From a virus, in the IMG/VR virus record IMGVR_UViG_3300032251_000001, positions 32,001 through 96,000 of that record: 64,000 bases of DNA, one strand, 5' to 3'. Shown here piece after piece: positions 379-63,471 of this stretch (position 1 is the stretch's first letter; every line of letters starts with the position of its first letter). Both the position numbers and the translations under genes were made by a program. The notes beneath the pieces are model-generated. The model did no database searches, was not told the origin of the DNA, and worked only from the letters and a program-made list of their open reading frames with translations.

Positions 379-390
379 AACAAAATATTA
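379..390 (+). promoter_or_regulatory. late-type phage promoter AACA-N6-TA
   Basis: AACA-AAATAT-TA 32 nt upstream of the 422 ATG; matches the AR9 nvRNAP late consensus. Confidence 0.6.
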
Positions 391-421
391 AACTAAATAT
401 TTAGAAAGGAGACAAATTTTC

Positions 422-1762
422 ATGTTAAGAGACGTTGTAGATTTAGTTAAAGAACTTAAAAATATAGCAGATGATATTCCTGAAGATAAAGTAGCACTTA
501 ATCGTATCCTTAAAGCAGCGACAGGTGGTAATTTATCAAAATCTGTTACTAGAAGAGCTAAGAATAATCTTTGTCAGTTCCCATTATTAATTAGTAGTGC
601 AGCTGAGAAAGAAAGTGTTCCTATGTGTACTAAAGCTTTGGAGCGTGAGTATTCAACTCTGTTAAGATTCGTTATTGGACAAGATGATATTATTGATTTA
701 AAAAACTTTGATAAGAAATCTTATATTAAAAAGTTACACCAAAATAATAATATTCATCCATCAGCAAGTTATATTTCTGACATAAACGAATTTTTAGAAA
801 GTAACATAGTTATTCTGAATAAAGAAGAACTTAGACCATTTATGGAGGACTTTAAGTCTGGTAGTATTAATGATTTAACTATCAAAAATTATGAGGTTAT
901 AAAAGAATCACTAAAGATTAATAGTGATATTAATTATTATGCTGAAGCTGATGAAGAGATGACAAAAGATGAATTAGATTATCATAATAAAGTAATGGAC
1001 ACTCAACTTAAAGCAGCTCAACTTCAAAAGACAAACGCTGAACAGCAAAAAATTAGCAGAGACATTAAAAAGTTAGACAATGAACGTTCTAAGGATTATA
1101 AAACTGGCATCACTACAAATATTGTAGATTTAGATGTTAAGAAATCTAATGAGTTAATGCCTACCGTTATGGAAGTAATGGTTGAGTATAAAGCTGGTGA
1201 TACATTTAAAACAACTAATCTTTTATTAGGTGTTAAGTGTGTAGCACATGTTATACCTACTGAAGAGATGGTTTACTTTGTAAGTAAGTCATTAAGAGAG
1301 AATAGATTTGCATTTAGAACTATTCAGTGGACTACTGGTGAAATTAAATTCTGGAAAGACTTTGTATTATCATTAGATAGAATTAAAGCTGAAGCTTCTA
1401 AGAGTAATAAATCATCTATATGGTGGTCATTCTTAAGAGGTAGAGCTAAGAATTCTAAATTCAAAGGGTTACTAGGTAAAGAAGGATTTATTCCTAATAC
1501 TACATTAGCATTAACAATGTCAGAAGTAGAATTCCTTAAGAACAATGAAGGTATTGATTTATTTAATGCAAGTACTGCACATAAGTTAATGAATATATTC
1601 TTCTTATTAAGAGTAATGATATTGGATGATATTGATGAAGTAGCTTACATGTTTGATGAAGAACAAAGAACTTGGTCTCATTACTCATACAACCAGCTTG
1701 AAAAAGAGAAGAGTTCTTCTAATAAAGACCTTAAATCTCTTGTAAGCTTAATTAATAGATAG
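422..1762 (+). CDS. probable jumbo-phage virion (head) structural protein, 446 aa
   Basis: Long ORF, SD AAGGAG, late-type promoter, first gene of an operon with internal head paralogs; function inferred from context. Confidence 0.45.
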   Translation: MLRDVVDLVKELKNIADDIPEDKVALNRILKAATGGNLSKSVTRRAKNNLCQFPLLISSAAEKESVPMCTKALEREYSTLLRFVIGQDDIIDLKNFDKKSYIKKLHQNNNIHPSASYISDINEFLESNIVILNKEELRPFMEDFKSGSINDLTIKNYEVIKESLKINSDINYYAEADEEMTKDELDYHNKVMDTQLKAAQLQKTNAEQQKISRDIKKLDNERSKDYKTGITTNIVDLDVKKSNELMPTVMEVMVEYKAGDTFKTTNLLLGVKCVAHVIPTEEMVYFVSKSLRENRFAFRTIQWTTGEIKFWKDFVLSLDRIKAEASKSNKSSIWWSFLRGRAKNSKFKGLLGKEGFIPNTTLALTMSEVEFLKNNEGIDLFNASTAHKLMNIFFLLRVMILDDIDEVAYMFDEEQRTWSHYSYNQLEKEKSSSNKDLKSLVSLINR

Positions 1763-1773
1763 GGAGGAAAATT

Positions 1774-2712
1774 ATGCAACCATTTAGAAATATTGATAGT
1801 CTTCTTAAACCTATTCTAGTTCAAGAAGGTGTAGATGTTATTAAATATAACAAGTTAACTGAAAGTGATAAAAATGAAATCTCTAAAGACTTAGTAGCGA
1901 GAGTTTACAAGTCTATTAAAGACAAAACACTTCAGATAGATTACAGCTTTATTGAAAAGTCTAAAGGAGACATTACTAAGATTCAAAATTATGCAGACCT
2001 TGAAGGTTCTATTAATTACCTACAAAACATGTATAACAATGATACAAATGCACCAAAAGAAATAAATGACTTAAAGAAGACTCTAAACAATCTTAAAAGA
2101 TATACAAGAGACTTTACGACAGGATATAAGAAGAAAAATGAACTAGTTATGTTCTACTATAACAATGTGGTAGCTTCATTAATTAGTGCAACTTCATTTA
2201 TCATAGCAACATCTGTAGATTATATTAAGGACACTATGAAAGATATGAGACCAGTTTTCAAGGCTAATCTTAGTAAGAATAAATCTGCTAATTTATTCCT
2301 AGAAAATATTCGCTCATTCAATAGTATGGTTACTAAAGGTCATTTTAAGACTTTTGTAGATAATGCTAATAATGTGGATAACCTTGTAGGTCTGGGATTA
2401 ACTGCTTTCTTAGCTATAGCAATTGCTATATTCTGTATCCGTGATGCAGTATACATTTTCTTCTATAGTAGAAATAGTGTATCTGAAAACTTATTGAACT
2501 TAGCATATTTCGTTAACCTTAACGCAAATGCAGCTTCACAAAAAAATGGAAAAGCTAAAGGTAAACAAGAGAAAATTGCTAAACAACTAATTAATCTGTC
2601 AGATAAAATATCAGTTGAGCAAAAGGTATCTACTAAAAAAGCTGAACATGATATGAAAATTGAAGAGAATGATACAGATGCATATGTTGCATCAGACGAT
2701 GATTTACTATAA
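1774..2712 (+). CDS. probable internal head/ejection protein with hydrophobic segments, 312 aa
   Basis: SD GGGAGG; hydrophobic stretches VVASLISATSFIIATSV and LVGLGLTAFLAIAIAIFCI; acidic tail SDDDLL. Confidence 0.45.
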   Translation: MQPFRNIDSLLKPILVQEGVDVIKYNKLTESDKNEISKDLVARVYKSIKDKTLQIDYSFIEKSKGDITKIQNYADLEGSINYLQNMYNNDTNAPKEINDLKKTLNNLKRYTRDFTTGYKKKNELVMFYYNNVVASLISATSFIIATSVDYIKDTMKDMRPVFKANLSKNKSANLFLENIRSFNSMVTKGHFKTFVDNANNVDNLVGLGLTAFLAIAIAIFCIRDAVYIFFYSRNSVSENLLNLAYFVNLNANAASQKNGKAKGKQEKIAKQLINLSDKISVEQKVSTKKAEHDMKIEENDTDAYVASDDDLL

Positions 2713-2730
2713 TTAAATAGGAGGATTACT

Positions 2731-3651
2731 ATGTTTTTAAATGAAAATACAGATAATTCATATTTAGAAGGTGTTAATGAATTCGAAGGTAAATATACTG
2801 GAGAATTCGAAGAAGCATTTGAAATATGTCTTGAATCTGAAAGAGAATGGCATAATCTTGAAATGAAAATGACAAGAGCAGAACATACTGCAATTGTTAA
2901 TGAAGACACTGCTTTAATGGAAGGTGCTGTAGGCGACTTCTTTGCTAAAGCTAAACAATGGTTTATTACTTTAGGTAAGAAAATTAAAGAATTCTTTAAA
3001 CGTCTTATTGAAAGAATTGGTGTATTCTTCATGAATGCTAAAAAGTTTGTTGCTAAATATGGTAAACAATTAGAGAAGTTAGGTAACAATGAGATTAAAG
3101 GTACAATTAAAATGTATCCATCTATTGTTAAAAATTCTATAGACCTTGGTGCTTTAGATAGTTTAGGTTCTGATGAACTTAAAGAAATTGAAACAAAAGC
3201 ATACAGTGTTGAAGAAATTAGAGAGGAATTAAAGATTCCTTCAACTTCTGAAATGGCAGAAATTATTCTTGGTGGAGAAAAATCTGAAGAGACTATTACT
3301 TCATCTATTGTTAAAACTGCATTAGGAATTCTTAGAGATGAAGCTGTAATTAAGAAAGAATTAGCTCAAATTAACTCTGACGCTGAAAAAGAAATTAAAA
3401 AAGGTATTAAAGAATGTGAAGCTGCATTAAAAGGCAACATCAGTGACCCAGAAAGAAGTAAATTAAATAGAGTTGTAAGTAACTCTAAGAACTGTGCTTC
3501 TTTAGTAAATACAGTATTAGGTCAACTTGGTGGACTATATTCTAAATTAGCATCAAATTCACTTTCTATTTGTAAGAAGGCTTGGACTTCTAGAAAAGGT
3601 GAAAACATTAAGCAAAAAGGATATGAAGAGTCTGTACTTGACATGTTCTAA
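2731..3651 (+). CDS. internal head (ejection) protein paralog A, 306 aa
   Basis: Acidic propeptide rich in L-x-E sites, then amphipathic helix ALME|GAVGDFFAKAKQWFITLGKKIKEFFKRL, an architecture like phiKZ-type inner-body protein families. Confidence 0.65.
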   Translation: MFLNENTDNSYLEGVNEFEGKYTGEFEEAFEICLESEREWHNLEMKMTRAEHTAIVNEDTALMEGAVGDFFAKAKQWFITLGKKIKEFFKRLIERIGVFFMNAKKFVAKYGKQLEKLGNNEIKGTIKMYPSIVKNSIDLGALDSLGSDELKEIETKAYSVEEIREELKIPSTSEMAEIILGGEKSEETITSSIVKTALGILRDEAVIKKELAQINSDAEKEIKKGIKECEAALKGNISDPERSKLNRVVSNSKNCASLVNTVLGQLGGLYSKLASNSLSICKKAWTSRKGENIKQKGYEESVLDMF

Positions 3652-3733
3652 AACAAAATATTATTGTTAGTTATATATTTGATTTACGAGTTTATTTATT
3701 AAATAAGTAAATAAACTTGTAAACAAATATTTA
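3652..3733 (+). promoter_or_regulatory. two late-type promoters (3652-3663, 3722-3733)
   Basis: AACA-AAATAT-TA and AACA-AATATT-TA between the two paralogs. Confidence 0.55.
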
Positions 3734-3778: not shown

Positions 3779-4678
3779 ATGTTTTTAAACGAAAATAATG
3801 ACTCTTATCTTGAAGGAGCAAACGAGTTTGAAGGTAAATATACTGGAGAATTTGAGGAGGCTTTTGAGATTTGTTTAGAGTCAGAGAGAGAATGGCACAA
3901 TCTTGAAATGAAGATGGCAAGAGCAGAACATACTGCAATTGTTAATGAAGATACAGCTTTGATGGAAGGTGCTGTAGGCGACTTCTTTGCTAAAGCTAAA
4001 GCTTGGTTCATTGCTTTCGGTAAGAAAGTTAAAGAATTCTTCAAGAGATTAATTGAAAGAATTGGTGTATTCTTCATGAATGCAAAGAAATTCGTTGCTA
4101 AGTATGGTAAGCAATTAGAGAAGTTAGGTAACAATGAGATTAAAGGTACAATCAAAGTGTATCCTCAAGTTGAAAAAGGAACTCCTTCTTCAATCGCTGC
4201 TCCTACTACTTTAATTCCAGATGGTAAGAAAGATGCTGAGGAAATCAGAGAATATCTTAAATTACCTACATCTACTGAAATAGTAGAAGAAATGCTTGGT
4301 GGAGAAAAGTCTGATGAAAAGATTACTTCTTCTATGGTTAAAGGTGCATTAAAGATTCTTAGAGCGGAAGCTGACTTCAAAAAAGGTTTAACTGCTGTTA
4401 TGACTTCTACTGAAAAAGCTGTTGCTGCTGGTATCAAAGAATGTGATTCAGCTAAGAAATTATCATCAGGTGACCCTGAAACTTCTAAGATTAATGATTC
4501 AATCAGTAACTTAAAGACTGTATCATCTGTTCTTAATAGTGTATTAGGTCAAATGGGTGGTGCTTATTCTAAATTAGCTTCTAATGCTCTTTCTGTTTGT
4601 AAGAAAGCTTGGAACTCTAGAAAAGGCGAAAACATTAAGCAAAAAGGATATGAAGAGTCTGTACTTGACATGTTCTAA
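3779..4678 (+). CDS. internal head (ejection) protein paralog B, 299 aa
   Basis: N-terminal ~125 aa and C-terminal SRKGENIKQKGYEESVLDMF nearly identical to paralog A; middle divergent. Confidence 0.65.
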   Translation: MFLNENNDSYLEGANEFEGKYTGEFEEAFEICLESEREWHNLEMKMARAEHTAIVNEDTALMEGAVGDFFAKAKAWFIAFGKKVKEFFKRLIERIGVFFMNAKKFVAKYGKQLEKLGNNEIKGTIKVYPQVEKGTPSSIAAPTTLIPDGKKDAEEIREYLKLPTSTEIVEEMLGGEKSDEKITSSMVKGALKILRAEADFKKGLTAVMTSTEKAVAAGIKECDSAKKLSSGDPETSKINDSISNLKTVSSVLNSVLGQMGGAYSKLASNALSVCKKAWNSRKGENIKQKGYEESVLDMF

Positions 4679-7511: not shown

Positions 7512-7865
7512 CTAATATCTTATTACTTTATATGGTAATTTAAATCTATTTGCTACTTTAATCATATGTTTACTGCCATCACTTTTACCATCCCAGAATA
7601 TTATAACACCATCAGCAATTTTACCCATTTCTATATTTCTAGAATAACCAGCTCCATCACCAAATCTATTCCAATCTGCTGGAAATCTTTGCACTTCTAA
7701 ACCATACTCATCTGCAAAGTCTTCACCTAGAGAATCAGCACCTTCAGCACATCCAGATATTATAATTAAATCGCTACCAAATGCTTCATAAAATGGTATA
7801 ATCTTATTTTTTAGAAGGATATAATCATTAAATTCTCTTCCACCTGCAATAACTAGTTTAAACAT
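7512..7865 (-). CDS. SLOG-superfamily (YspA/DUF2493-like) nucleotide-binding protein
   Basis: VIAGGREFND, ISGCAEGADSLG, AGYSRNIEM, FWDGKSDGSKHMI; start moved to ATG 7865 (TAATG coupling). Confidence 0.85.
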   Translation of the reverse strand: MFKLVIAGGREFNDYILLKNKIIPFYEAFGSDLIIISGCAEGADSLGEDFADEYGLEVQRFPADWNRFGDGAGYSRNIEMGKIADGVIIFWDGKSDGSKHMIKVANRFKLPYKVIRY

Positions 7866-8020
7866 TAATCCATGAACTGGAAATAGAAAGCACATAAATC
7901 ATTCTTATGACATCTATGACAAAACTTAGGGTCAGTCTTTGGTTGGAAACCATCACATTTATCAAACATTTCTTTTAACTCTTCATCTGTTAATTTTACA
8001 TTTACATTATTTAAACTCAT
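7865..8020 (-). CDS. small Cys-rich protein (51 aa), absent from the ORF track
   Basis: MSLNNVNVKLTDEELKEMFDKCDGFQPKTDPKFCHRCHKNDLCAFYFQFMD; stop overlaps the next ATG. Confidence 0.6.
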   Translation of the reverse strand: MSLNNVNVKLTDEELKEMFDKCDGFQPKTDPKFCHRCHKNDLCAFYFQFMD

Positions 8021-8851: not shown

Positions 8852-9106
8852 CTATTCTTCCATTGACGCTTCTAGAGCGTTTATAATACTTTCTAAACCT
8901 ATATCATGTAGGTCTTTTAATTTAGCTAGATTAAGAGTAGTTCCTTTACCCATTCTATCTTCATCTCTATTCCAATCACGAATATCAATAACAGGTGTCT
9001 TACTATTTCCCCAAGTCATAATATTAACTTCTTTTTGCCATCCTTTATTACTCTCACCAAGAGTTCCTAGTTGGTCTATAATTGTATATTTTACTTCTTT
9101 AGCCAT
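8852..9106 (-). CDS. YdbC/PC4-like ssDNA-binding protein
   Basis: LGTLGESNKGWQKEVNIMTWG...IDIRDW...RMGKGTTL is the YdbC signature. Confidence 0.85.
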   Translation of the reverse strand: MAKEVKYTIIDQLGTLGESNKGWQKEVNIMTWGNSKTPVIDIRDWNRDEDRMGKGTTLNLAKLKDLHDIGLESIINALEASMEE

Positions 9107-9182
9107 AATTATCTTCCTTTCAATTTTCAGTAATTTGTATTATTTTATTGTTGCATCAATAATTAAAAGTTAAAAAATAAAA

Positions 9183-9210
9183 AAGGTATACTAAATTAAT
9201 AGTATACCTT
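9183..9210 (-). terminator. terminator hairpin downstream of tRNA
   Basis: 11-bp stem AAGGTATACTA/TAGTATACCTT followed by a T-run on the minus strand. Confidence 0.7.
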
Positions 9211-9221
9211 ATAAAGATTAA

Positions 9222-9298
9222 TGGCTCTCCCAACAGGATTTGAACCTATGACACATCGGTTAACAGCCGATTGCTCTACCGAACTGAGCTATGGGAGA
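9222..9298 (-). tRNA. trnN: tRNA-Asn(GTT) with encoded CCA
   Basis: Cloverleaf: TCTCCCA/TGGGAGA acceptor, GCTC/GAGC D-stem, ATCGG-CTGTTAA-CCGAT anticodon arm, TTCAAAT T-loop, G73, CCA. Confidence 0.97.
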
Positions 9299-9305
9299 AT
9301 ATATA

Positions 9306-9486
9306 ATGAATGTCCTTAGATACAATAGTTTCTAAGATATTGATAGGTGTACCTTTCACTCAATTAAAAGTAGAGTTACTTAGCTATCTCTTAGTACTTA
9401 ACTATACACTTAACGTTAAGAACTTTAATAGAACACTCTAGACGAGGTTACTTACTAAAGTAACTATAATATCTAAGGACATTCAT
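9306..9486 (-). ncRNA. candidate 181-nt structured RNA (6S-like size and architecture)
   Basis: Perfect 17-bp terminal inverted repeat (9306-9322/9470-9486) extended by G.U, one mismatch and 6 bp; no ORF; 7 nt upstream of the tRNA. Confidence 0.65.
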
Positions 9487-9493
9487 AAAATAA

Positions 9494-9540
9494 ATATACT
9501 TGGACTCTCATGTCCATAAAAACTCTCATGTTAAGTATAT
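9494..9540 (-). ncRNA. candidate three-way-junction RNA with twin AUGAGA loops
   Basis: AUAUACU/AGUAUAU closing stem enclosing AAC-AUGAGA-GUU and UGGAC-AUGAGA-GUCCA. Confidence 0.45.
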
Positions 9541-9548
9541 TATATGAA

Positions 9549-9621
9549 AGGATGTGATGAGGAAGCTCTTATAACTCTACATTAAATGTAAGTCCCTAAC
9601 TATCCAACATCACATCCCAAC
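9549..9621 (-). ncRNA. candidate 5' hairpin RNA at the predicted transcription start
   Basis: 11-bp stem GGGAUGUGAUG/CAUCACAUCCU with nested helices; starts 3 nt after the predicted +1. Confidence 0.45.
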
Positions 9622-9632
9622 AATTACTTGTT
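9621..9632 (-). promoter_or_regulatory. late-type promoter for the ncRNA/tRNA unit
   Basis: AACA-AGTAAT-TG on the minus strand, +1 G at 9621. Confidence 0.5.
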
Positions 9633-11226: not shown

Positions 11227-12015
11227 TTAATCCTCCTTATTCTTTCTTTCCATAAGATATTTAATAAATGTAGTATAGTTCTTATCAACAATCTTAATAT
11301 AATCTATTTTAGATTTCTTTAATATCTTATCTTTAATAACTTCTTTTTCTTTTTCTCTTTTTCGCCATTCATGTTTATTACTATTTTTATTACCTGTATC
11401 ATCAAAGTCAGAACCTTTAATTTCAATAATTAAATCTAGACTAGTAATGTATACATCTGGTATATAAAATCTAACTCGACCATCCTTATCTTTATAATCA
11501 AAGATTTGAGGTGCTGGCATCATGATGTCTTCAGGATTTTCCCAATTCATAAAGTGTTCCATGAAACCTAGGAAGTCTTCTTCATAACTGCCAGTATATG
11601 TAACTTCATGACCATTATCCCATTTGTATGTTCCAGAGATACTTCTATTAGCTAACATTTCTTTTTGTTTCTCAGGGTCATCTAATAAATGTTCTTTACC
11701 ATACTTATTTTTCATTCTTTTTTTAAATTGCTCTCTGTACTCAAGTCTTTCTTTTTCACTATGGAAACGTTCATAACGTTCAGTTTTTTCATTCCATTCA
11801 GTGGGTTTACCACTCATGACACATCTTCCACCAGTCTTCTTATTTCTATGATTGAAATATACTTGTGATGCAGACATATTACCCATAGCTTCTTTATGTT
11901 CTTCTTCCATATGTTGATATAAAGCTTGTTTAGCATCTTTAACTTGGTCTTTATTTTTAGCTATATATTTTTTATCACATAATGGACATTTAATAACTAT
12001 CTTATCACTAGCCAT
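11227..12015 (-). CDS. C2H2 zinc finger + PD-(D/E)XK (TnsA-like) nuclease
   Basis: CPLC...HMEEEH; YTGSYEEDF; FYIPDVY...IIEIKG catalytic motif intact. Confidence 0.7.
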   Translation of the reverse strand: MASDKIVIKCPLCDKKYIAKNKDQVKDAKQALYQHMEEEHKEAMGNMSASQVYFNHRNKKTGGRCVMSGKPTEWNEKTERYERFHSEKERLEYREQFKKRMKNKYGKEHLLDDPEKQKEMLANRSISGTYKWDNGHEVTYTGSYEEDFLGFMEHFMNWENPEDIMMPAPQIFDYKDKDGRVRFYIPDVYITSLDLIIEIKGSDFDDTGNKNSNKHEWRKREKEKEVIKDKILKKSKIDYIKIVDKNYTTFIKYLMERKNKED

Positions 12016-12044: not shown

Positions 12045-12056
12045 TAATAGTATGTT
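12045..12056 (-). promoter_or_regulatory. late-type promoter
   Basis: AACA-TACTAT-TA upstream of the 12015 operon. Confidence 0.55.
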
Positions 12057-13052: not shown

Positions 13053-13064
13053 AACAATAACATA
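13053..13064 (+). promoter_or_regulatory. late-type promoter
   Basis: AACA-ATAACA-TA upstream of the baseplate wedge gene. Confidence 0.55.
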
Positions 13065-13088: not shown

Positions 13089-13526
13089 GTGATTGTCATA
13101 GATGCATTTGTTCAAATTCTAAAGAAAGAATATTCATTAAATGTTGATGATTTTAATGAAACTGAATCTTCTACAGACTTAATAGCATTCGCTAGGTTGA
13201 TACAAACTCTTATAATATTAGAACCTTATACATATCCTAATATGCCAGATATGGGAGTTGGTATTGCTGATTATCAGTTTGAGTTTTTAGATGAAGTTAC
13301 TTTAAATAGACTCAAAGTGAGTATCAATCAGCAAATAGAAGAATATCTACCAAATAATATAATAAAGGATACTGTAATTGAAAAGTTACAAAGTAAAGAT
13401 AATAAAACTAATACTATAGGTATAATGTTTACTCTTACAAAAAGTATCAAAGGTAAAGATGAAATAATATTATTAATGAATAAAAAAATAGAATCTTCTA
13501 AAGTAATATCTGAAATAATATTTTAA
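13089..13526 (+). CDS. gp25/gpW-like baseplate wedge protein
   Basis: RLIQTLIILEPYTYPNMPDMGVGI...LKVSINQQIEEYLP; start is uncertain and non-ATG. Confidence 0.6.
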   Translation: MIVIDAFVQILKKEYSLNVDDFNETESSTDLIAFARLIQTLIILEPYTYPNMPDMGVGIADYQFEFLDEVTLNRLKVSINQQIEEYLPNNIIKDTVIEKLQSKDNKTNTIGIMFTLTKSIKGKDEIILLMNKKIESSKVISEIIF

Positions 13527-15092: not shown

Positions 15093-15476
15093 ATGTCAAT
15101 TGAAATTTATAATATGTTGGTGGATTTAGACGATAATTGTCTATCCAACCGAAATTTTATCTTTAGCTTGCAATATAGTCATAACGGTTTATTGTTAACC
15201 CGATTAATTGAAAATATAGAAAATGAAATTGAGAAAAATGTTATCATTCTAAGTGGATTTAAAAGTAGTCATATAAGTGGAATAGATTTTTTAAATGAGC
15301 AAGAACAGTATTTTGAATCCTGTACTATATCTTTTGAAGATTGCCTTGTTGAGGATGTTTTAAAGGAAATAAATGAATTAGAGTTGGTTAAGAAACTATG
15401 TCATACAGTTGTAATTAATGATGACAATTCTATATCACTTTTTCTAGATACTGAGAGAAGTAAAGAAGAAAATTAA
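15093..15476 (+). CDS. hypothetical protein
   Basis: SD AAGGAGG. Confidence 0.65.
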   Translation: MSIEIYNMLVDLDDNCLSNRNFIFSLQYSHNGLLLTRLIENIENEIEKNVIILSGFKSSHISGIDFLNEQEQYFESCTISFEDCLVEDVLKEINELELVKKLCHTVVINDDNSISLFLDTERSKEEN

Positions 15477-15533
15477 TATATGGTGGTAGAACTTATTATA
15501 GGTTCTACCACTTTATTATTTAAAGATTATTTG

Positions 15534-15545
15534 AACATTAAGATA
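15534..15545 (+). promoter_or_regulatory. late-type promoter
   Basis: AACA-TTAAGA-TA upstream of the chaperonin. Confidence 0.55.
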
Positions 15546-15565
15546 ATACAACTTAGGAGGATAAC

Positions 15566-17266
15566 ATGGAAGATTATTTAAAATCAAATATAGTGGGTAA
15601 AGAAACCACTAAAGAACAAATATCAAAATCACTATCATTTATTAGTGATAGACTAGCTAGTACTCTTGGACCATATGGTGGACCAACTATAATTCAAGAT
15701 AGACACTTACAACATTTTATGTCAAAAGATGGATACACTGTTTTAAAGAATATGTATTTTGATGATGACATCCCAAGAACTGTTCTTGATATTATTAAAA
15801 GAATTAGTAAGACTTTAGTTAGAACTGTTGGTGACGGTTCAACTTCATCTGTAATAATTGCAGACAATCTTTTTACAACTATTAATGATATATTGGATGA
15901 ATATAGTTTAGCTGCTAAAGATATGGAAAATGTACTAGATATTGTATGTGTAGAATTATCTACAATGATTTCAAACTTAAGCACACATATTACATCTGAT
16001 AACCAAGATGAAATACTTACTAAAATAGCTTCAATCTCAACAAATAATGATAATGAGAGTGGTAAATTCATATGTAAGTTATTTAATGAAATTGGTGTTC
16101 ATGGTAAAGTAAGTATCGAGAAGAGTAAAAGAGAAGAAACGTATTACAACTTAACATCAGGTACAGAGATTAAGCGTGGTTATATTGAACCAGTTTATGC
16201 CACTGAAGCTGATAAAACTACATGTAAGTATGAAAATGTAAATATATTTATGTGTAATGATACAATGCAAGATGATGATATGGATATGGTTGCAGATTTA
16301 TTAAATGATGTTTGCATCCAAAAAGATGAACCATTAATATTCATTGCTAAAGATTATTCACATTCAATGAAATCACTATTCTTTGCTAACAAGATGAGAT
16401 ATAAAAAACTACCTTTAGTGGTTATTGATATTTCGTTAGCAAGTAATGATTCTAGAAATAGATTTGATGATATAGCTTTCTTAACTAGTTCAGTACCTTT
16501 TAATAAAAGAGAAGGTGAAGAGCTTGAAAATGGTAAGTTTGATATCAATAGATTGGGTTATTGTGCTAAGATAGAAGTAAATGAAACTACATCTAAGTTA
16601 ATTGATGGTGATGTAGATGAAAAATCTGTAACTGAAAGAACTGATAGTTTGATTAAGTTACTTAGAGAATTAGAAGTTAGAAATGACCATATTGATAGAG
16701 AAAATCAAATTTATGAACTAAAGAGAAGAATTGCAGTTCTTAGTGGTTCTATGGCTGTAGTTTATGTAGGTGGTAATACTGAAGCTGAAAAAGAAACAAA
16801 GAAATTCTTAGTAGAAGATGCAGTATATGCATGTCAATCTGCTTTAGAATATGGATATGTAGTAGGTGGTAACTTATCAATACCTAGAATATTATCTGAT
16901 GATAAAAACTTTAATAGTATTATTAATACTCTTAAAGAAGAATTATCTTATATGTCAAACCGTAAAAACTTTGATATAAATAAGTTTTGTAATGGTGTAC
17001 TATCAAGTATTAAACATTCATTTGAGTATGCATACTCAAAAGTACTTAGTAATGCTAACTTATCTGAAGATGACATAGTTGAGATTATAGAAGGTTGCAC
17101 TAATAATGACTTTATCTATAACTTAAAGATGCACAAGTATGAGAATGATGATGTTACTATGGTAATAAATTCAGTTCAGACAGATATAGAGATACTTAAG
17201 GCAACATTTTCATTAATAGGACTTCTTGCAACTAGTAATCAATTTCTTACTATAAATACTAATTAG
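15566..17266 (+). CDS. groEL: phage-encoded GroEL-like chaperonin, 566 aa
   Basis: STLGPYGG, SKDGYTVL, VGDGSTSS (ATP-binding), RRIAVLSG...YVGGNTEAE, DAVYACQSALEYGYVVGG. Confidence 0.92.
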   Translation: MEDYLKSNIVGKETTKEQISKSLSFISDRLASTLGPYGGPTIIQDRHLQHFMSKDGYTVLKNMYFDDDIPRTVLDIIKRISKTLVRTVGDGSTSSVIIADNLFTTINDILDEYSLAAKDMENVLDIVCVELSTMISNLSTHITSDNQDEILTKIASISTNNDNESGKFICKLFNEIGVHGKVSIEKSKREETYYNLTSGTEIKRGYIEPVYATEADKTTCKYENVNIFMCNDTMQDDDMDMVADLLNDVCIQKDEPLIFIAKDYSHSMKSLFFANKMRYKKLPLVVIDISLASNDSRNRFDDIAFLTSSVPFNKREGEELENGKFDINRLGYCAKIEVNETTSKLIDGDVDEKSVTERTDSLIKLLRELEVRNDHIDRENQIYELKRRIAVLSGSMAVVYVGGNTEAEKETKKFLVEDAVYACQSALEYGYVVGGNLSIPRILSDDKNFNSIINTLKEELSYMSNRKNFDINKFCNGVLSSIKHSFEYAYSKVLSNANLSEDDIVEIIEGCTNNDFIYNLKMHKYENDDVTMVINSVQTDIEILKATFSLIGLLATSNQFLTINTN

Positions 17267-17269
17267 AGT

Positions 17270-17295
17270 ATGGAAGACTTCGGTCTTCCATCTTT
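17270..17295 (+). terminator. intrinsic terminator
   Basis: TGGAAGAC-TTCG-GTCTTCCA followed by TCTTTT. Confidence 0.75.
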
Positions 17296-17310
17296 TAATT
17301 TGGATGGAGG

Positions 17311-18205: not shown

Positions 18206-18363
18206 GGGTGTTTTTTATCCCATTTTTTAAATATATATTATGATAGTGAACTTTAATTTTATAACTATCTAAGGAGGGCTTAATGGATACAGTAGTAGGA
18301 GATTAATTAGGCATTATCAAAAACGACAACTATATATTTAAAAAACAAGGAGGAACTAAATTT

Positions 18364-20861: not shown

Positions 20862-20866
20862 GGGAG

Positions 20867-21322: not shown

Positions 21323-21323
21323 T

Positions 21324-21563: not shown

Positions 21564-23069
21564 ATGACAAAAATAGAGAAAGGGTGTTGCAAATTGGCGT
21601 TAAAGACTATGACAAGCTGTAGAAACGGTGGTAAAGAAATATTTATTGACTTCGAAGAAATTTTTCAACGTGAAGTAGAGGATAAAGATTTATGTACATT
21701 CTCACTATCGAAGAGACGTACTTATGTAAATATAAGTAGTTCAATAAATACAACATTAAATGAGATATTCACCTCATGTAAAGATGAAATCGCAATCCCA
21801 TATCTGTCAATCAAGTATAAGATGTTAGATAGTTCAATTGAATTTGATGAGGAAGATATTATTAATGATATCTTCACAGACCTACTTAATCAAACAGTGT
21901 TGAATGAAATTGACAACTATGTAGAAACTAACTATTCAGTTAATCTTGATGGTGACAGTAATCGTTCCAAGACAGTAAATGAAGAGCTTCAGTTTACTGA
22001 TGAACATGCAAAGATTATATTAAAAGCTTCGAGAGCTATGAAACTTTTAATACCAGTAATGTCTGATTTTGTTGATATAACTGGTAACAGTAAGAGTGAT
22101 AACTTCTTCTTAGACGTATTCACTAGACTATTTGATTTATTCATTGATAGGGAGATTAATATAACTAACAAGTTGTATAAGTTAATTGATTCAAGAATAG
22201 TTCAAACGCAATACAGTGATAAAGTAATGTGGTCGTACCTTAAAAATATGGCTATTGATACTCACATATTGACTAGAAACTTTTATAAGAAAGTTATAGT
22301 TAATATATTACCAAAGCTTGAGCCTGATAAAAGTATTGTAAGTTATTTACATGCAGTAATAAAGAACTTTATTACTTATCAGTTTAGAGTTAATTACAAA
22401 TTATCTTTTAAACCTATGAATTTAAATCAAACAGATAGTGAAGGTCTTACAGACTTTGATAAACTTGAAGTTAATATGATTCGTATTGATGAAGGTAAAT
22501 CAATCATTAATAAACTATCAATAACTACTCAAATTAGAAATCTAATAGATGTCTTTGAGATGGAATTATCTCAAGATGAAATAGATTATTATAAGGAGTT
22601 TGTACACATTAATAAAGTACAGACAAACTTGTTATTCTTATTCTTTGCAAGATATATGGGTAGTTACAACACAATTTATGGTTGTTCACATGATGAGTAT
22701 ATAGTATTACTTATTATGATGAGAAAGTGGTTGATTGAGAACAACTTCCCTGTACTGGCTGAATATCTAACTGCCATACCAGAGAAATTGAATGAAAAGA
22801 AATCTATCAATAAAAATAAGTTCTTGAAGAGACTTATGGAAAGTAAGAAATATAAATACTTGTATGAAGGTAAATATAAGTTTATTCTTAGTAATCTTGT
22901 TGATAGTGGTGTAATAATTAAAACAATCTCTAATCTGAAATCTAATAAGTTCCATTGCTTACCAACCTATGAAGAATCTATAGATATGGAAGTAGTTGAA
23001 CTACATGAAATAGAAAAGAAGATAGAAGAGATATCTGATGAAGTATTAAGTTTAATAGAATTAATCTAG
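21564..23069 (+). CDS. probable promoter-specificity (sigma-like) subunit of non-virion RNA polymerase (AR9 gp226/phiKZ gp68-like)
   Basis: ~500 aa helical protein; QFTDEHAKIILKASRAMKLLIP and NKLYKLI segments recall that family; near chaperonin and primase; start may be TTG 21594. Confidence 0.5.
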   Translation: MTKIEKGCCKLALKTMTSCRNGGKEIFIDFEEIFQREVEDKDLCTFSLSKRRTYVNISSSINTTLNEIFTSCKDEIAIPYLSIKYKMLDSSIEFDEEDIINDIFTDLLNQTVLNEIDNYVETNYSVNLDGDSNRSKTVNEELQFTDEHAKIILKASRAMKLLIPVMSDFVDITGNSKSDNFFLDVFTRLFDLFIDREINITNKLYKLIDSRIVQTQYSDKVMWSYLKNMAIDTHILTRNFYKKVIVNILPKLEPDKSIVSYLHAVIKNFITYQFRVNYKLSFKPMNLNQTDSEGLTDFDKLEVNMIRIDEGKSIINKLSITTQIRNLIDVFEMELSQDEIDYYKEFVHINKVQTNLLFLFFARYMGSYNTIYGCSHDEYIVLLIMMRKWLIENNFPVLAEYLTAIPEKLNEKKSINKNKFLKRLMESKKYKYLYEGKYKFILSNLVDSGVIIKTISNLKSNKFHCLPTYEESIDMEVVELHEIEKKIEEISDEVLSLIELI

Positions 23070-23109
23070 GAGTTTTTCTCCTAGATTTTCTTTTTTAAGG
23101 AGGAATTCA

Positions 23110-26199: not shown

Positions 26200-26285
26200 T
26201 GCTTTAATTTATTATTATCAAGATTATAATATATGATTAAACTATACATTATTACGTTTTTTTAGAAACAATAAATTAATATAAT

Positions 26286-28602: not shown

Positions 28603-29442
28603 ATGCCACTCAAGAGGAGAAACTTTATGAAAATGAATATGCTGAAAGTTGTATTAGTAGTATTGTTTGCATTATTTGTTATGAATAGCGTGGTTATTGT
28701 GTACTTAGCTTTACAATTTAAATCAGATATCAGAGTTGCAGAATATGTACATGATATGGAAACATCTGAACATGATGAACGAATAACTGCAATATTAAGT
28801 AATATTGAAGAACATGAGAAAGACTTTGATAGACAATTTGAAGAAACTAAAAAAGAATTGCAAGATATTGAATTTAAAATAGAAGAACTTAGAAGAGGAT
28901 ATGAATTGATATATGATACTAAAGGTAGATTATTCTTAGAACATGTTGATGATGATAAAATTATAGAATTAACTAATATAACTACATCTTTTAATGTACT
29001 TCAACCTTCGTCTATTACAGCATATGAATTAGATATGATACTTGAAGGTTCTGGTCTTGAAGGGTTAGGGAAAGAATATATTGCAGTTGAAATGAACTAT
29101 GGCATCAATGCATTGTTTATGGTGTGTAAGGATATACATGAATCAAGTTGGGGTAATTCAGATTTAGCTAAATATAAAGATAATATATCTGGTTATAAAG
29201 CATATGACCATGACCCATATAATAGTGCAACTGACTTTACAGATATTGGTGGGAAACCTGCATGTATAAGAACTGTTGCAAACTCATTATTAAAAAATTA
29301 CTTAACTGAAGGTGGAGATTATCATTATGGATATACCATACAAAGTATAAATAGAAGCTATGCATCAGATAATAATTGGGGTAATTCCATAGCTAGATTA
29401 ATGAGAGATTTAAATGAAAAAATTATAGAATCAACAAATTGA
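28603..29442 (+). CDS. membrane-anchored GH73 glucosaminidase
   Basis: N-terminal TM helix, coiled coil, YGINALF...HESSWG...KDNISGYKAYD...YASD..W. Confidence 0.85.
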   Translation: MPLKRRNFMKMNMLKVVLVVLFALFVMNSVVIVYLALQFKSDIRVAEYVHDMETSEHDERITAILSNIEEHEKDFDRQFEETKKELQDIEFKIEELRRGYELIYDTKGRLFLEHVDDDKIIELTNITTSFNVLQPSSITAYELDMILEGSGLEGLGKEYIAVEMNYGINALFMVCKDIHESSWGNSDLAKYKDNISGYKAYDHDPYNSATDFTDIGGKPACIRTVANSLLKNYLTEGGDYHYGYTIQSINRSYASDNNWGNSIARLMRDLNEKIIESTN

Positions 29443-29469
29443 TAATGTTAAAAGTATTGGAGGTATTTA

Positions 29470-32684: not shown

Positions 32685-32767
32685 ATAATCATCCTTTCTT
32701 TATTTTTTAATTTATTGTTCAATAATATATTATATAAATGACAAACTAAAATTAAGGAGAGTGTAAT

Positions 32768-33741: not shown

Positions 33742-33809
33742 TATTCTTCTTTTTTTTTATTACTTAATCACATACTAACAATATTATAAGGAAGGATGGT
33801 GAAAAGAAA

Positions 33810-36692
33810 TTGAGTGAGTATAAAATAAATGATAAACGAACTAAACTTGAGATAGATAAACTTATTAACTTCTGTAAAGACCTTGTAATTAAGGATGAAG
33901 AGTTAGCTGATGAACTTGAAACAATAGATAGTTCAAAGAAAGGATATGCTTTAGTATCTGCAATATTAAAAACTGATAAGATAACTGACTATGTTATAAC
34001 TCAAAAAGATTTAGACTCAGTAGAGTTAAACTCAGGTTTAATATTTAATAATAAGTATGTAACATTATCCTTCTCAAAATATAATCCACAATTTATACCT
34101 GAAGAACTTCAAGAGTTCGTACTTGATTACAAACGATATAAACTATATCGTGAATACATGGCTATAGGAGACTTGAATCCATATTATGAAGGTTTATACC
34201 AAGATTATGAGAAAGCCTATGAGAGAGTATATCAAACTTATGAAGAATTTATTAACAGTGAAAGAAAATGCTTTTATGTAATTGCTAGAAGAGCTGCAGA
34301 TTATTCTATATTATCTTATCCAGATAAAATATTTTCTGTAGATGAACTTAGTGAGTATAGAAACATATACTATGAATGTCAAAACTACTTTACAACTGTA
34401 TTATACAATGAAGCTTATAAGATTGGTAATAAGAAGTATAACAATTTTGCAAGATTACTTATTGTATTTATGTCTATGCAACGATTTATGAATGCTAGAA
34501 TAGAAAACATTACTAATATAGATTTTTATGATAACTATTCTATACGTAATATGTTTATATCATATGGACTAGATTACTTCTCAGATATGCCACAAACGTA
34601 TCAGAGACGTATATTAAAGAACATTAATGATTTATTAGCTACTAAAGGTACAACTAAAGCTATTGTAAGTGTTCTTCAATTGTTTGGATATCAAAACATC
34701 AATGTATTTAAATACATTTTAGCAAAAGATTATAAACGTGATGAGTTTGATAAACCAATATTAAGTGAACCAGATTTAAAGTTTTTAAAGATACCTCATG
34801 ATACAAATAGAATCGAAAAAGAAATACTTAATGCAACATCATATTCGTATGATTCATTTATTGCAGACGACCCTTTATGGCAAGTTAGTGATAGAGACAA
34901 ACAGGATTTAATAAATAACTCATTTAACTATGTTGAAACAAAGTATATTGGTATAAATAGTACCATGAATTTACTTAAACAAACGTTAGATTTATCATAT
35001 TTCTATAGTTTAATATTAGACATAGAGAAGACCCATGATGATTCATTTAATTTATTAAGTTATTATAACATAGATATATCTAAATCTAAAATAGGTGTTG
35101 TTGAGACTGTTATTGCTTTACAAAGTTTAGTTCTTCGTAGAATGGGATATAAAGATAATATCTTAACAGGATTAAACTCAACTGCATATGTTAATGGATG
35201 CAACTATGATGAAATTCTTGAAAAAGTTAAGTTCAGAGAGACTTCAATATCACATGGTATGAATGAATCTGATGAAGCAATGGAGCATTACAAATATTTA
35301 AGTCCCGAATTTATCAATAGATATAAAGGGCAAACATTATCCAGTATAGTTCAAGATGGTACAATGACTAAAGATAAGTTAGTTGAAATATATTTAAACA
35401 ATCAGTCTATGAGAGAAGATATGGAAAAACAAATCTTAGAAGCTGAAGACTATCATACCTACAAGAAACTTCTTAAGTTATATGAAGTTAACTTTGTAAC
35501 AAACATTCGTGATGAAATATTCATGAAAGAAGATGGAACGTATTATGAAACATATAGAGATTTTGTAAAGAGTAGAAGTGAAGACTTGTATGATTTTATT
35601 AATATTGAAGTTGATGGTGATATTACATCAACTGAGAATACTATGAAGTTTGAAGACCTTATACTTACATTGTGTAACTCTTTAGATGTTTTTTTAAATG
35701 ACGATAATATGGATTTCTTCCTAACGAATAATATACTATCTGTCAACTATATTAAGACATTCATGTACAGACTTATAAATGTAATTAAGTCATACACTAT
35801 TGATATTAAGGAACTATCAGTTGTATATGTACTTGATAGTAAGTTTCTTAGTGCTATACATTACTTTGATGAGACAACATTTAAAGTAGAATTTAAACAA
35901 ACAGAATTAGTTAATCTAAGTCATATACAAGAGTATCATAACAATAATTCTTATGGTGATAGATTATTTGAAGAATTCGAATATAAATTGGTATCTAAAA
36001 CATTCTTAAGTTTATTTGAAGGAATACCATTTGAAGATTTGAAAGTAATAACCAATGAGAGTAAGTTTAGTGAATTTTTAGAAGCATTTGAAGACCAAAT
36101 TAATGTTAACAATGTTCAAAGTTTAGGTGAAGCATTACTAATGTTTAACTTATTTGATGAAATTGGTATCATAACCAAGACTATGTTTATAGATGGTCTT
36201 ACTAAATTATTTGATAAGAAAGAAATCATGTCACAGCATAGAATTGTTGAATTCATGGAATATTTCTTAGATAAATTTTATGTAACTGAAACTAGCCAGA
36301 GATATGGAGAAATATTCGTTCCCAAAGAACATAATGTTTTATATATGGAAATGGTTAATGATGAGAATTTAAATTTAAACGAACTGATGGACTTTATACA
36401 CATTATAATCCGTAAAGATAGTCTAAAGATATTAGAGTATGTCTTAGGTAATAAAAATATATTTAGTTTTAAAGGTTCAATTAATTTATCTTATCAAACA
36501 TTATATTATATGTTAAATATTGTAAATAATTTAAATCTTGAGTTAGAACATAAAGTAATAACTAAAGCTCTAACTTTTGATGCAGACCTTGTTAATTTCA
36601 ATGATGAATTAAACACTCTCAATAAAGAGGTATATCTTGGTAGTAAACTTGATATGAGGGAAAACTTTACAATTACAATAACAGACAATTAA
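33810..36692 (+). CDS. baseplate wedge subunit (gp7/gpI-like), 960 aa
   Basis: RNMFISYGLDY...RRILKNINDLLATKGTTKAIVSVLQLFGY; late motif at 33777-33788; TTG start. Confidence 0.65.
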   Translation: MSEYKINDKRTKLEIDKLINFCKDLVIKDEELADELETIDSSKKGYALVSAILKTDKITDYVITQKDLDSVELNSGLIFNNKYVTLSFSKYNPQFIPEELQEFVLDYKRYKLYREYMAIGDLNPYYEGLYQDYEKAYERVYQTYEEFINSERKCFYVIARRAADYSILSYPDKIFSVDELSEYRNIYYECQNYFTTVLYNEAYKIGNKKYNNFARLLIVFMSMQRFMNARIENITNIDFYDNYSIRNMFISYGLDYFSDMPQTYQRRILKNINDLLATKGTTKAIVSVLQLFGYQNINVFKYILAKDYKRDEFDKPILSEPDLKFLKIPHDTNRIEKEILNATSYSYDSFIADDPLWQVSDRDKQDLINNSFNYVETKYIGINSTMNLLKQTLDLSYFYSLILDIEKTHDDSFNLLSYYNIDISKSKIGVVETVIALQSLVLRRMGYKDNILTGLNSTAYVNGCNYDEILEKVKFRETSISHGMNESDEAMEHYKYLSPEFINRYKGQTLSSIVQDGTMTKDKLVEIYLNNQSMREDMEKQILEAEDYHTYKKLLKLYEVNFVTNIRDEIFMKEDGTYYETYRDFVKSRSEDLYDFINIEVDGDITSTENTMKFEDLILTLCNSLDVFLNDDNMDFFLTNNILSVNYIKTFMYRLINVIKSYTIDIKELSVVYVLDSKFLSAIHYFDETTFKVEFKQTELVNLSHIQEYHNNNSYGDRLFEEFEYKLVSKTFLSLFEGIPFEDLKVITNESKFSEFLEAFEDQINVNNVQSLGEALLMFNLFDEIGIITKTMFIDGLTKLFDKKEIMSQHRIVEFMEYFLDKFYVTETSQRYGEIFVPKEHNVLYMEMVNDENLNLNELMDFIHIIIRKDSLKILEYVLGNKNIFSFKGSINLSYQTLYYMLNIVNNLNLELEHKVITKALTFDADLVNFNDELNTLNKEVYLGSKLDMRENFTITITDN

Positions 36693-43334: not shown

Positions 43335-43431
43335 ATGCATGAGTGTGGAGATTAAATATGTCCACACTTTTTCCTTTTAATGTGTATAAAACATTATATT
43401 AAATAATTATATGTATTAAGGAGGATTAGAC

Positions 43432-46025: not shown

Positions 46026-46074
46026 ACTGTTGATAATGTAATTAAACATAACTATGAAAAGGAGAACAACTATT

Positions 46075-48750: not shown

Positions 48751-49017
48751 TTAGTTATATATTTGCTTCATAGTAAGTATGTAAGAACCTAACTTAGCTT
48801 TACAACATGTATCTCGTCTAACTCCATCTATAATAAATCTACCATCTTTAGGTAAATCATCCTCAATAATTATTATCCTTTTTCCTATGTAATCTTCTAA
48901 TACAGATAAATCTGTCATCTGTTTTACATTACAGAATCTAGCTATAACTAAATTATGCTCTCTTATTTTCTCAATCTTATATGTTCCTTGATTGGTTGTT
49001 GCTTCTAAATAAATCAT
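48751..49017 (-). CDS. hypothetical protein, late-type promoter
   Basis: AACA-TTATAT-TA at 49065-49054; SD GGAGGG. Confidence 0.55.
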   Translation of the reverse strand: MIYLEATTNQGTYKIEKIREHNLVIARFCNVKQMTDLSVLEDYIGKRIIIIEDDLPKDGRFIIDGVRRDTCCKAKLGSYILTMKQIYN

Positions 49018-49150
49018 ATACCCTCCATCTCCCCTGCTGTCGTTATTAATATTTAATATAATGTTTTATAAATCGTATATACTTATAATATAATTATATA
49101 TTATAAACTTGATAATGATAATAAACTACTATATACTTAGGAGGTATAAC

Positions 49151-62442: not shown

Positions 62443-62869
62443 CATGGAATATAGAGTTATTAAAAATGTTGTAGATAAATTTGTAGAAGGTGGGTATACA
62501 AGAGATGAAGGAGATTCAATTGAAAACATATCTATACCTGATGACTATTTATTTAATGACTTAGAAGATGCTATGAATTACATTAATAATTATTTAGAAA
62601 TATATTTACATGAAAGTAATATATACGTGCATGAAATTCAAATATATCCTTTATCTAAACTAGGTAGAAATCCTTTAATGCTTAGAGTTATGCTTGATGA
62701 ATATGAAGATGATTTAATGTTATTCTATATAACATTTAATAATCATGGAGAGTTAGTACAAGAACTAAGAGAGTGTATGATTCAGCTAGAGTTGAATAGA
62801 GAACTAAATGTACCTACTAAAAAAGAACAACATGATAAAGAATTGCATGATAGATTAATGAACCAATAG
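62426..62869 (+). CDS. hypothetical protein, paralog of 58711..59310
   Basis: See paralog; start probably MEYRVIK (MEYRKID in the paralog). Confidence 0.65.
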   Translation: MEERFNMEYRVIKNVVDKFVEGGYTRDEGDSIENISIPDDYLFNDLEDAMNYINNYLEIYLHESNIYVHEIQIYPLSKLGRNPLMLRVMLDEYEDDLMLFYITFNNHGELVQELRECMIQLELNRELNVPTKKEQHDKELHDRLMNQ

Positions 62870-62877
62870 GAGGAATT

Positions 62878-63183
62878 ATGAAGAAATTTAGAAGAAGTTT
62901 TGATGAAGTAAGATACTATATTAAGTTACTATCTGAAAATGGAACACCTGCATTAGATATATTGGAATACATTAAGAAAAAGACATCTGACATCAAGGTA
63001 TCTAATCAAAGATTGCAGCAATATCTAATACTATCTCAATATTTATATGGTAAGATAGATGTTGCTGAAATAACACAAGATGATATCAGTGAACAGATAA
63101 ATATTATCACTATTAATGATGCCATGTTCTATAAACTTTGCGATATACTTGAGAGCATGTGTGAAAATCTTAAATTAATCTAA
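62878..63183 (+). CDS. hypothetical protein
   Basis: SD AGGAGG. Confidence 0.6.
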   Translation: MKKFRRSFDEVRYYIKLLSENGTPALDILEYIKKKTSDIKVSNQRLQQYLILSQYLYGKIDVAEITQDDISEQINIITINDAMFYKLCDILESMCENLKLI

Positions 63184-63192
63184 GGAGAGTTT

Positions 63193-63453
63193 ATGAGAAA
63201 GAAATTAACATGGTTAGTTATAATACTAACAACATTATCAACTATTGAAGCTATAAAATATATTTATTTTAGAAAATATATAGATAGTTTTGAGTTGTGG
63301 ACGATATTACTTACTGTACCTTATTTAATATCAATATTAATACTAAGAGCTAAATACAGTGACCCAGGATACATTAACCATAGGGTATATAAATTTAACT
63401 TTATATGTAGTATACTTATCATAGGTACAATTATATTTAGAAACTGTATATAA
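63193..63453 (+). CDS. three-TM membrane protein
   Basis: Three hydrophobic helices; SD AAGGAG. Confidence 0.65.
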   Translation: MRKKLTWLVIILTTLSTIEAIKYIYFRKYIDSFELWTILLTVPYLISILILRAKYSDPGYINHRVYKFNFICSILIIGTIIFRNCI

Positions 63454-63471
63454 CATATTATTAACTAAATA

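Follow-up and report, generated by a model that had tools for sequence, protein, structure and literature searches.

AR9-type late and early promoter motifs and a gp226-like polymerase subunit in an uncultivated AR9/PBS1-like jumbo phage

The DNA described here is a stretch of 64,000 nucleotides (the window) comprising bases 32001-96000 of the 135,788-bp contig IMGVR_UViG_3300032251_000001, a viral metagenome record of IMG/VR with 29% GC. Many of its genes are preceded by the short pattern AACA-N6-T(A/G), the late promoter of phage AR9, which in that phage is read by a non-virion RNA polymerase (nvRNAP), and the window also carries a gene for a homologue of gp226, the sigma-like subunit which gives the AR9 enzyme its promoter specificity. 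The AR9 nvRNAP is made up of five subunits, gp270, gp154, gp105, gp089, and gp226; a second RNA polymerase (vRNAP) is packaged in the virion. Positions are those of the window unless the contig is named.

Own gene calls were used, 168 on the contig and 100 in the window, and homologues were assigned by tblastn of all 168 against the fetched AR9 genome. Forty-four genes have an AR9 homologue, arranged in long syntenic runs and including GroEL, primase, RNase H, tape measure, baseplate wedge, and several genes annotated as "virion protein" in AR9, which are virion structural proteins according to PHROGs as well. The identity to the AR9 counterparts is only 25-54%, and the best protein matches after AR9 come from BpSp, Goe21, PBS1, Listeria LPJP1, Yersinia phiR1-37, and the Staphylococcus S6/MarsHill group. 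In a megablast search against GenBank phages the first 20 kb matched nothing but a tRNA; there appears to be no close cultured relative. CheckV rated the contig as 53% complete, which suggests a full genome of about 250 kb, and a protein identical to the gp226 homologue is recorded on a 233-kb contig. By these relationships the contig can be firmly assigned to the AR9/PBS1 lineage, as roughly half of the genome of an uncultivated jumbo phage. Genes for the nvRNAP βN and βC subunits, the uracil-DNA glycosylase inhibitor (UGI), dCMP deaminase, ribonucleotide reductase (RNR), DNA polymerase, major capsid protein, portal, sheath, and terminase were not found on this 53%-complete contig. Most of the absent genes map to AR9 regions without a counterpart here; the exception is dCMP deaminase and RNR, which are missing from an otherwise AR9-syntenic stretch.

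The late motif and the genes behind it

A preliminary description of the window had listed 14 copies of the motif just upstream of genes. All 14 of these 12-mers are present at their positions and on their strands, and twelve lie 32-57 nt before a start codon with a Shine-Dalgarno sequence, while two, 3652 and 9632(-), are doubtful. Three well-placed sites, 9152(-), 29433, and 46045, were absent from that list. The sites are as follows.

379..390, + strand: late motif AACAAAATATTA, 43 nt before gene 422-1762, a virion structural protein homologous to AR9 gp214
3652..3663, + strand: same motif copy as at 379, abutting the stop codon of gene 2731-3651, next gene 127 nt downstream; doubtful
3722..3733, + strand: late motif, 57 nt before gene 3779-4678, a virion structural protein like AR9 gp216
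9141..9152, - strand: late motif, newly listed, 46 nt before gene 8852-9106(-), a PC4-like DNA-binding protein 54% identical to AR9 gp093
9621..9632, - strand: motif AACAAGTAATTG (AACA-N6-TG), no open reading frame (ORF) downstream; doubtful
12045..12056, - strand: late motif, 41 nt before gene 11227-12015(-), an endonuclease 49% identical to AR9 gp233; motif also at the AR9 orthologue
13053..13064, + strand: late motif, 36 nt before gene 13089-13526, the baseplate-wedge homologue of AR9 gp232; motif also at the AR9 orthologue
15534..15545, + strand: late motif, 32 nt before the GroEL-like gene 15566-17266, homologous to AR9 gp228
26267..26278, + strand: late motif, 37 nt before gene 26304-26993, homologous to AR9 gp242; motif also at the AR9 orthologue
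29433..29444, + strand: late motif, newly listed, 37 nt before gene 29470-30246, homologous to AR9 gp239
32708..32719, - strand: late motif, 35 nt before gene 31980-32684(-), homologous to AR9 gp261, in a divergent region shared with the early promoter 32725(+)
33777..33788, + strand: late motif, 33 nt before gene 33810-36692, a virion structural protein homologous to AR9 gp260; motif also at the AR9 orthologue
36680..36691, + strand: late motif within the preceding gene's 3' end, 39 nt before gene 36719-37465, a virion structural protein homologous to AR9 gp259; motif also at the AR9 orthologue
43390..43401, + strand: late motif, 42 nt before gene 43432-43809 (function unknown)
46045..46056, + strand: motif AACATAACTATG with G at +1, newly listed, 30 nt before gene 46075-46464; weaker candidate
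49054..49065, - strand: late motif, 48 nt before gene 48751-49017(-), back to back with the early promoter 49096(+)
63452..63463, + strand: late motif that overlaps the preceding gene's stop codon, 38 nt before gene 63490-63858

Abundance of the motif carries no information. Over the whole window AACA-N6-TR was found 120 times, below the 150.6±10.4 expected from dinucleotide shuffles, so that only positional tests are meaningful and the signal is purely positional, a point on which the preliminary description proved right. Scoring was therefore confined to positions -60 to -14 before the start codon on the sense strand, with shuffles of the same 47-nt windows as controls. In the window, 18 of the 100 genes have the motif in this region (5.17±2.18 after shuffling, maximum 14 in 3000 shuffles; antisense strand 3), and the genome-wide enrichment test suggested earlier yielded, on the contig, 32 of 168 genes (8.6±2.8, maximum 20 in 2000; antisense 5). 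On the contig, spacers of N3-N5 and N7-N9 gave 8-19 genes compared with 32 for N6, and permuted tetramers gave 2-17. Of 54 sense matches within 150 nt of a start codon, 24 sit 30-49 nt upstream. The extended form AACA-N6-TAA has 63 copies on both strands of the contig, and 26 of these fall into the upstream windows, which make up about 2-3% of positions, with none on the antisense strand. Alignment of the 32 contig sites showed A at +2 in 27 and no information content at -35. AACA-N6-T(A/G) is thereby confirmed as a real, position-specific upstream signal.

In AR9 the late consensus AACA-(6N)-TA/G, with its last base as the transcription start site (TSS), was found at 94 of 118 non-early TSSs (PMC5312081), and the nvRNAP reads the template strand, where it needs uracils at -11 and -10 (PMC5449584); the consensus and the uracil requirement had been correctly stated in the preliminary description. 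When AR9 itself was run through the same pipeline as a control, 65 of 298 genes carried the motif (14.2±3.6 expected) with the same N6 specificity. The core is identical in the contig and in AR9/PBS1; in both, A is preferred at -3 and makes up about 90% of the letters at +1, and AACA lies a median of 41 nt from the start codon here compared with 40 nt in AR9. The two differ at +2, where A occurs in 84% of sites here but in 39% in AR9, and at -7, which is more often A here.

Among the genes behind these sites are virion structural proteins and the baseplate-wedge homologue. The earlier statement that most head and baseplate operons were covered was too strong for a window without major capsid, portal, sheath, or terminase genes. 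The site at 3722 is better placed than that at 3652, which may be the upstream member of a tandem promoter pair. Downstream of 9632(-) lie about 330 nt of ORF-free DNA and then a tRNA-Asn(GTT) at 9222-9298(-); a search of the region 9183-9632(-) against Rfam at gathering thresholds returned the tRNA alone. The motif at 9632(-) could serve as promoter of the tRNA or of a noncoding transcript; the single tRNA gene of AR9 is a late gene. A match at 37507, 110 nt upstream of a gene, was discarded as poorly placed. Outside the window, the contig encodes at 15334-23811(+) a tape-measure homologue of 2825 amino acids with an AR9 gp204-like N-terminus and a C-terminal M23 peptidase domain, and the late motif stands 43 nt upstream of it.

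Early promoters and RNA polymerase genes

Unbiased k-mer enrichment in the intergenic DNA recovered the Shine-Dalgarno sequence and ATATATTATA. The 9-mer ATATATTAT has 35 copies on the contig, most of them intergenic, close to genes, and followed by N5-TGA. The early promoter of AR9, read by the vRNAP, is AAATATATATTAT-(6N)-G (PMC5312081). Judged by its letters, the element of the contig is a highly conserved AR9-type early promoter, ATATATTAT-N6-G, in which T at -1 and A at +2 extend the published consensus. The following copies were located in the window.

18233..18249, + strand: early promoter example, ATATATTAT-N5-TGA, perfect copy
8825(-), 13002(-), 26234(-), 27037, 30769, 32725, 38959, 43871, 49096, 51231, 53070, 61469(-): other perfect early copies
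21551, 12992, 32735(-), 54695: early copies with one mismatch

Both promoter classes are unevenly distributed over the genes. The early motif stands ahead of the early gene blocks and of the genes for the nvRNAP subunits β'C and β'N, and the one-mismatch copy at 21551 precedes the gp226 homologue; at none of these three nvRNAP genes was a properly placed late motif found. Orthologues of AR9 virion or vRNAP proteins have a late motif of their own in 10 of 15 cases, most of the others lying inside operons, and an early motif in none of the 15; the difference between virion or vRNAP orthologues and the other orthologues was significant (Fisher p = 0.02). As far as promoter sequences can tell, this partition into early nvRNAP genes and late virion and vRNAP genes reproduces the regulatory logic of AR9.

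Of the five nvRNAP subunits of AR9, three (gp226, gp270, and gp154) have homologues encoded on the contig, as do two vRNAP subunits (gp189 and gp264).

21594..23069, + strand: g49, homologue of AR9 gp226, the sigma-like promoter-specificity subunit of the nvRNAP, 32% identity, E 2e-54
g2: homologue of nvRNAP β'C (gp154), 623 amino acids, 39% identity, with a Pfam RNA_pol_Rpb1_5 domain
g132: homologue of nvRNAP β'N (gp270), 39% identity
8925-13082(-) of the contig, outside the window: g11, homologue of vRNAP β (gp189), 1385 amino acids, 37-42% identity over the aligned segments, with an Rpb2_6 domain
g128: homologue of vRNAP subunit gp264, 48% identity

The suggestion drawn earlier from the motif alone, that an nvRNAP should be involved, is thus borne out by a full-length gp226 homologue in the window and by β'N and β'C homologues elsewhere on the contig. 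The match of the g49 product to AR9 gp226 of known structure (PDB 7S01 chain A) extends over the full length with E 5e-55. Residues of AR9 gp226 which contact the DNA have been named in the structure paper (PMC9209446). The side chain of valine 206 clashes with the methyl group of a thymine at -10, and a V206G mutant accepts T; isoleucine 207 wedges the base, tyrosine 210 stacks on the guanine at -9, phenylalanine 261 and tyrosine 263 form main-chain hydrogen bonds to this guanine, and serine 245 and tyrosine 246 lie in the non-template groove (PMC9209446). In the contig homologue V206, Y210, S245, Y246, and Y263 are identical, isoleucine 207 is replaced by methionine and phenylalanine 261 by valine. 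The 2.1bis helix, in which valine 206 lies, reads YSDKVMWSYLKNM here and YSDVVIWTYLKNM in AR9, with a highly conserved pattern YSDxVxWxYLKNM.

The g11 gene for the vRNAP β-like subunit is a single uninterrupted ORF of 1385 codons, whereas its orthologues in AR9, PBS1, BpSp, and several Staphylococcus phages are split by introns and homing endonucleases; tblastn finds them in 3-5 pieces with HNH genes beneath.

An intergenic match at 21511, 83 nt before the gp226 homologue, was rejected as a promoter. This perfect AACA-N6-TA sits in the 13-nt loop of a 9-bp hairpin (AGTTAGACC / GGTCTAACT) which is followed by a run of T (21500-21545) and is read as a terminator-like structure between the upstream operon and the gp226 homologue, predicted to be transcribed early.

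Two further observations were made. An identical unusual ribosome-binding sequence, GGAGGGCTT, stands 1-7 nt before the ATG of seven genes (18273, 30811, 31609, 43910, 48105, 49655, and 12963(-)), and early promoters are found immediately upstream of four of the seven copies (12963(-), 18273, 30811, and 43910). Behind the copy at 18273 comes an ATG at about 18283, so that a small unannotated ORF may be present, or gene 18364-20568 may begin farther upstream. Secondly, the early-promoter gene 43926-46025(+) encodes a large, conserved, predicted early protein of 699 amino acids which matches phrog_1735 (unknown function) at E 2e-215; no AR9 homologue and no Pfam match were found for it, and a comparison with PDB sequences, made to see whether it might be a phage-nucleus shell protein, gave no match.

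A two-polymerase programme and the deoxyuridine question

Taken together, the promoters and polymerase genes very probably reflect an AR9-like programme with two polymerases, in which an nvRNAP with a gp226-like subunit reads the AACA-N6-TA late promoters. The virion-packaged polymerase would start early genes, those for nvRNAP subunits included, from ATATATTAT-N6-G. The nvRNAP would then assemble with its gp226-like, sigma-like subunit and start late genes, encoding virion proteins, vRNAP subunits, tape measure, and baseplate wedge, from the minimal 5'-AACA-N6-TA-3'. The final A of the motif would be +1, leaving a 5' untranslated region of about 20-35 nt before a strong Shine-Dalgarno sequence. 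The positional enrichment, the polymerase genes, the split of genes between the two promoter classes, and the conserved DNA-contact residues of gp226 were directly observed on the contig; the start position, the recognition of 3'-UUGU-5' on the template strand, and the requirement for deoxyuridine are deduced from homology to AR9.

Several points weigh against this programme. Start sites and the timing of expression are likewise argued from AR9. Chance alone would give about 5 of the 18 window sites. The nvRNAP βN (gp105) and βC (gp089) homologues were not found on the 53%-complete contig. Agreement between orthologous genes of the contig and AR9 in having a late motif is modest (both 11, neither 18, discordant 15; p = 0.066). 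Avoidance of the motif inside coding sequence is not significant: shuffling of synonymous codons gave 117 sense matches against 133±9 (p≈0.06) and 78 antisense matches against 86±6, and selection against the motif within genes was dropped as evidence on account of this marginal depletion.

If the requirement for deoxyuridine at the promoters holds here as well, the genome would have to consist of deoxyuridine-containing DNA (dU-DNA), with thymidine replaced and the late promoters functional only in that form. This is somewhat favoured by the evidence, and a dU-DNA genome may be called plausible, though unproven. The contig homologue of gp226 retains valine 206, the residue that keeps the methyl group of thymine out at -10 in AR9. 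A tree of the nvRNAP β'C subunit places the contig in a 100/100-supported clade with AR9, BpSp, phiR1-37, LPJP1, S6, and MarsHill, with Psa21 and D6 as outgroups, and the characterised members of this clade are all reported or presumed dU phages. ThyA, ThyX, dUTPase, and dCTP deaminase were not found on the 136 kb of contig, half of the genome. ThyA and ThyX are also absent from AR9, S6, LPJP1, phiR1-37, and four complete uncultivated relatives, while phiKZ with its thymine DNA has ThyA; dUTPase is absent from the five genomes checked for it, phiR1-37 and the four complete relatives.

These points have their limits. Only about 53% of the genome is at hand, and thymidylate synthase is missing from many thymine-DNA phages, too. 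At position 206, 36 homologues from a large protein database have valine in 18, threonine in 7, isoleucine in 5, serine in 3, arginine in 2, and another residue in 1; glycine never occurs, which fits uracil selectivity but makes the position a poor discriminator. The branching order inside the β'C clade is unresolved, and the pocket residues of the βN subunit (gp105 R363 and K375) lie outside the available half. A UGI search with AR9 gp104 gave no match on the contig at E ≤ 10. UGI is a small, poorly conserved protein, and gp104 (PBS2 Ugi) adjoins gp105 in the part of the AR9 genome which has no counterpart on the contig. Seven of eight complete clade members have a dCMP deaminase; none was found on the contig, and it may lie in the missing half. 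The AR9-syntenic slot beside the gp220 homologue holds another gene instead.

7512-7895, - strand: YspA/cpYpsA-related protein of the SLOG family (Pfam PF10686, E 7e-13), adjoining the gp220 homologue

In AR9 this slot contains dCMP deaminase followed by NrdF/E/I, whereas on the contig it has neither RNR genes nor the deaminase. Pfam scans of about 30 further window proteins yielded no nucleotide-metabolism enzymes but YspA/SLOG, DUF6551, SLT, and a weak DHH match. In addition, PCR-based libraries under-represent dU-DNA, which is poorly amplified by common polymerases, yet the contig comes from a metagenome assembly. Of the searches proposed with the dU suggestion, the one for thymidylate synthases came out as that suggestion would have it on this half of the genome, and those for UGI and dCTP deaminase found neither gene. 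The suggestion thus remains consistent with valine 206, with the clade, and with the lack of thymidylate synthase and dUTPase on the contig, but cannot be demonstrated from half a genome.

A different reader of the motif is very unlikely. In phage T4, host RNA polymerase is directed by gp55 to TATAAATA, and host polymerase with a phage or host sigma factor or activator of this kind could in principle serve the motif with the nvRNAP not involved; a short -10-like element without -35 does superficially resemble sigma-dependent phage late promoters. However, the lack of information content at -35 is accompanied by a motif, a spacing, and a distance to the gene which are identical to those of the AR9 promoter, read in vitro by nvRNAP with gp226 (PMC5312081, PMC5449584), and the specificity subunit together with its DNA-contact residues is conserved here. 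No Pfam sigma-factor match was found in about 40 proteins scanned, with no dedicated sigma search of the whole contig. Chance, which might place so short an A/T-rich pattern in AT-rich intergenic DNA, is scarcely credible as a full explanation and is refuted as such by the controls. It would account for the low whole-window count and for the roughly 5% of 47-nt upstream windows which match after shuffling, but not for a count 3.5-4 times that of composition-matched shuffles of the same windows, which no shuffle reached, nor for the sharp distance distribution and antisense, other-spacer, and permuted-tetramer controls at background, and chance persists only for single weak sites (3652, 31564, 46045, and 62826).

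The promoter grammar in related phages

The proposed two-polymerase programme with a gp226-type nvRNAP has its closest counterpart in Bacillus phage AR9/PBS1. With AR9 the contig shares the core late motif, the companion early promoter ATATATTAT-N6-G, the split into early nvRNAP and late virion and vRNAP genes, and valine 206 and tyrosine 210 of gp226. It differs from AR9 in its 25-54% identical proteins, in the uninterrupted vRNAP β ORF, and in the lack of dCMP deaminase and RNR genes at the syntenic position. The Staphylococcus jumbo phages S6, MarsHill, Madawaska, and Machias resemble it in belonging to the AR9 clade, in having both polymerase sets, and in their reported or presumed dU-DNA, but their polymerase subunits are farther from those of the contig (29-40% identity) than are those of AR9. 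In the MarsHill genome paper an early motif TATATTAT was described upstream of 29 genes, while MEME did not recover a late promoter, which was called hard to predict de novo; here the known late motif was recovered by positional enrichment. The nvRNAP of phiKZ is a homologous enzyme with split β and β' subunits, a fifth subunit of the gp226/gp68 type, and a very short promoter near the TSS, but phiKZ has the late consensus TATG with G at +1, thymine DNA, and an encoded ThyA, and the β'C subunit of the contig groups with the AR9 clade rather than with the phiKZ-like outgroups Psa21 and D6. Yersinia phiR1-37, likewise a jumbo phage, shares with the contig a gp226 homologue and the lack of ThyA, ThyX, and dUTPase, and has dU-DNA. 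No late consensus for phiR1-37 was found in the literature, and in one 21-kb locus of this phage the late motif was not enriched (2 of 25 genes, 1.0 expected).

An alignment-based search of IMG/VR yielded 14 loci with gp226 homologues of 30-45% identity, one of which is the phiR1-37 genome. Pooling the 13 uncultivated loci gave the late motif at 42 of 284 genes compared with 10.8±3.2 expected and 8 on the antisense strand, with clear N6 specificity, and these loci include contigs of 57-62% GC. One of them (L013, IMGVR_UViG_3300042922_001182) is a complete jumbo phage of 238,984 bp with direct terminal repeats, 62% GC, and a gp226 homologue of 42% identity, in which ThyA, ThyX, dUTPase, and dCMP deaminase were not found. 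In the 21 kb sampled from it, AACA-N6-TR stands upstream of 4 of 28 genes, with 0.2 expected, so the AR9 promoter grammar appears to persist at very different base composition. It can be proposed only tentatively that positional enrichment of AACA-N6-TA together with a gp226 having a valine 206-type 2.1bis helix marks dU-DNA genomes from sequence alone, and that dU jumbo phages form a broad, environmentally widespread clade beyond the cultured isolates, including both the present low-GC phage and L013.

The phage described here adds a further member to the known AR9-type system and is as such confirmatory rather than surprising. Uracil-containing phage DNA escapes restriction systems, and standard library preparation under-samples it; the combination of motif and subunit is a candidate in-silico flag for such phages. 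Published genome analyses considered the late promoter not predictable by bioinformatics in relatives such as MarsHill and phiR1-37. As a simple positional test recovers it here, it should now be possible to annotate late operons in contigs of the AR9 clade. Both AR9 promoter classes, the specificity subunit, and, as read from the promoters, the early/late wiring persist in an uncultivated phage with proteins only 25-54% identical to those of AR9, and its metagenomic relatives show enrichment of the late motif as well.

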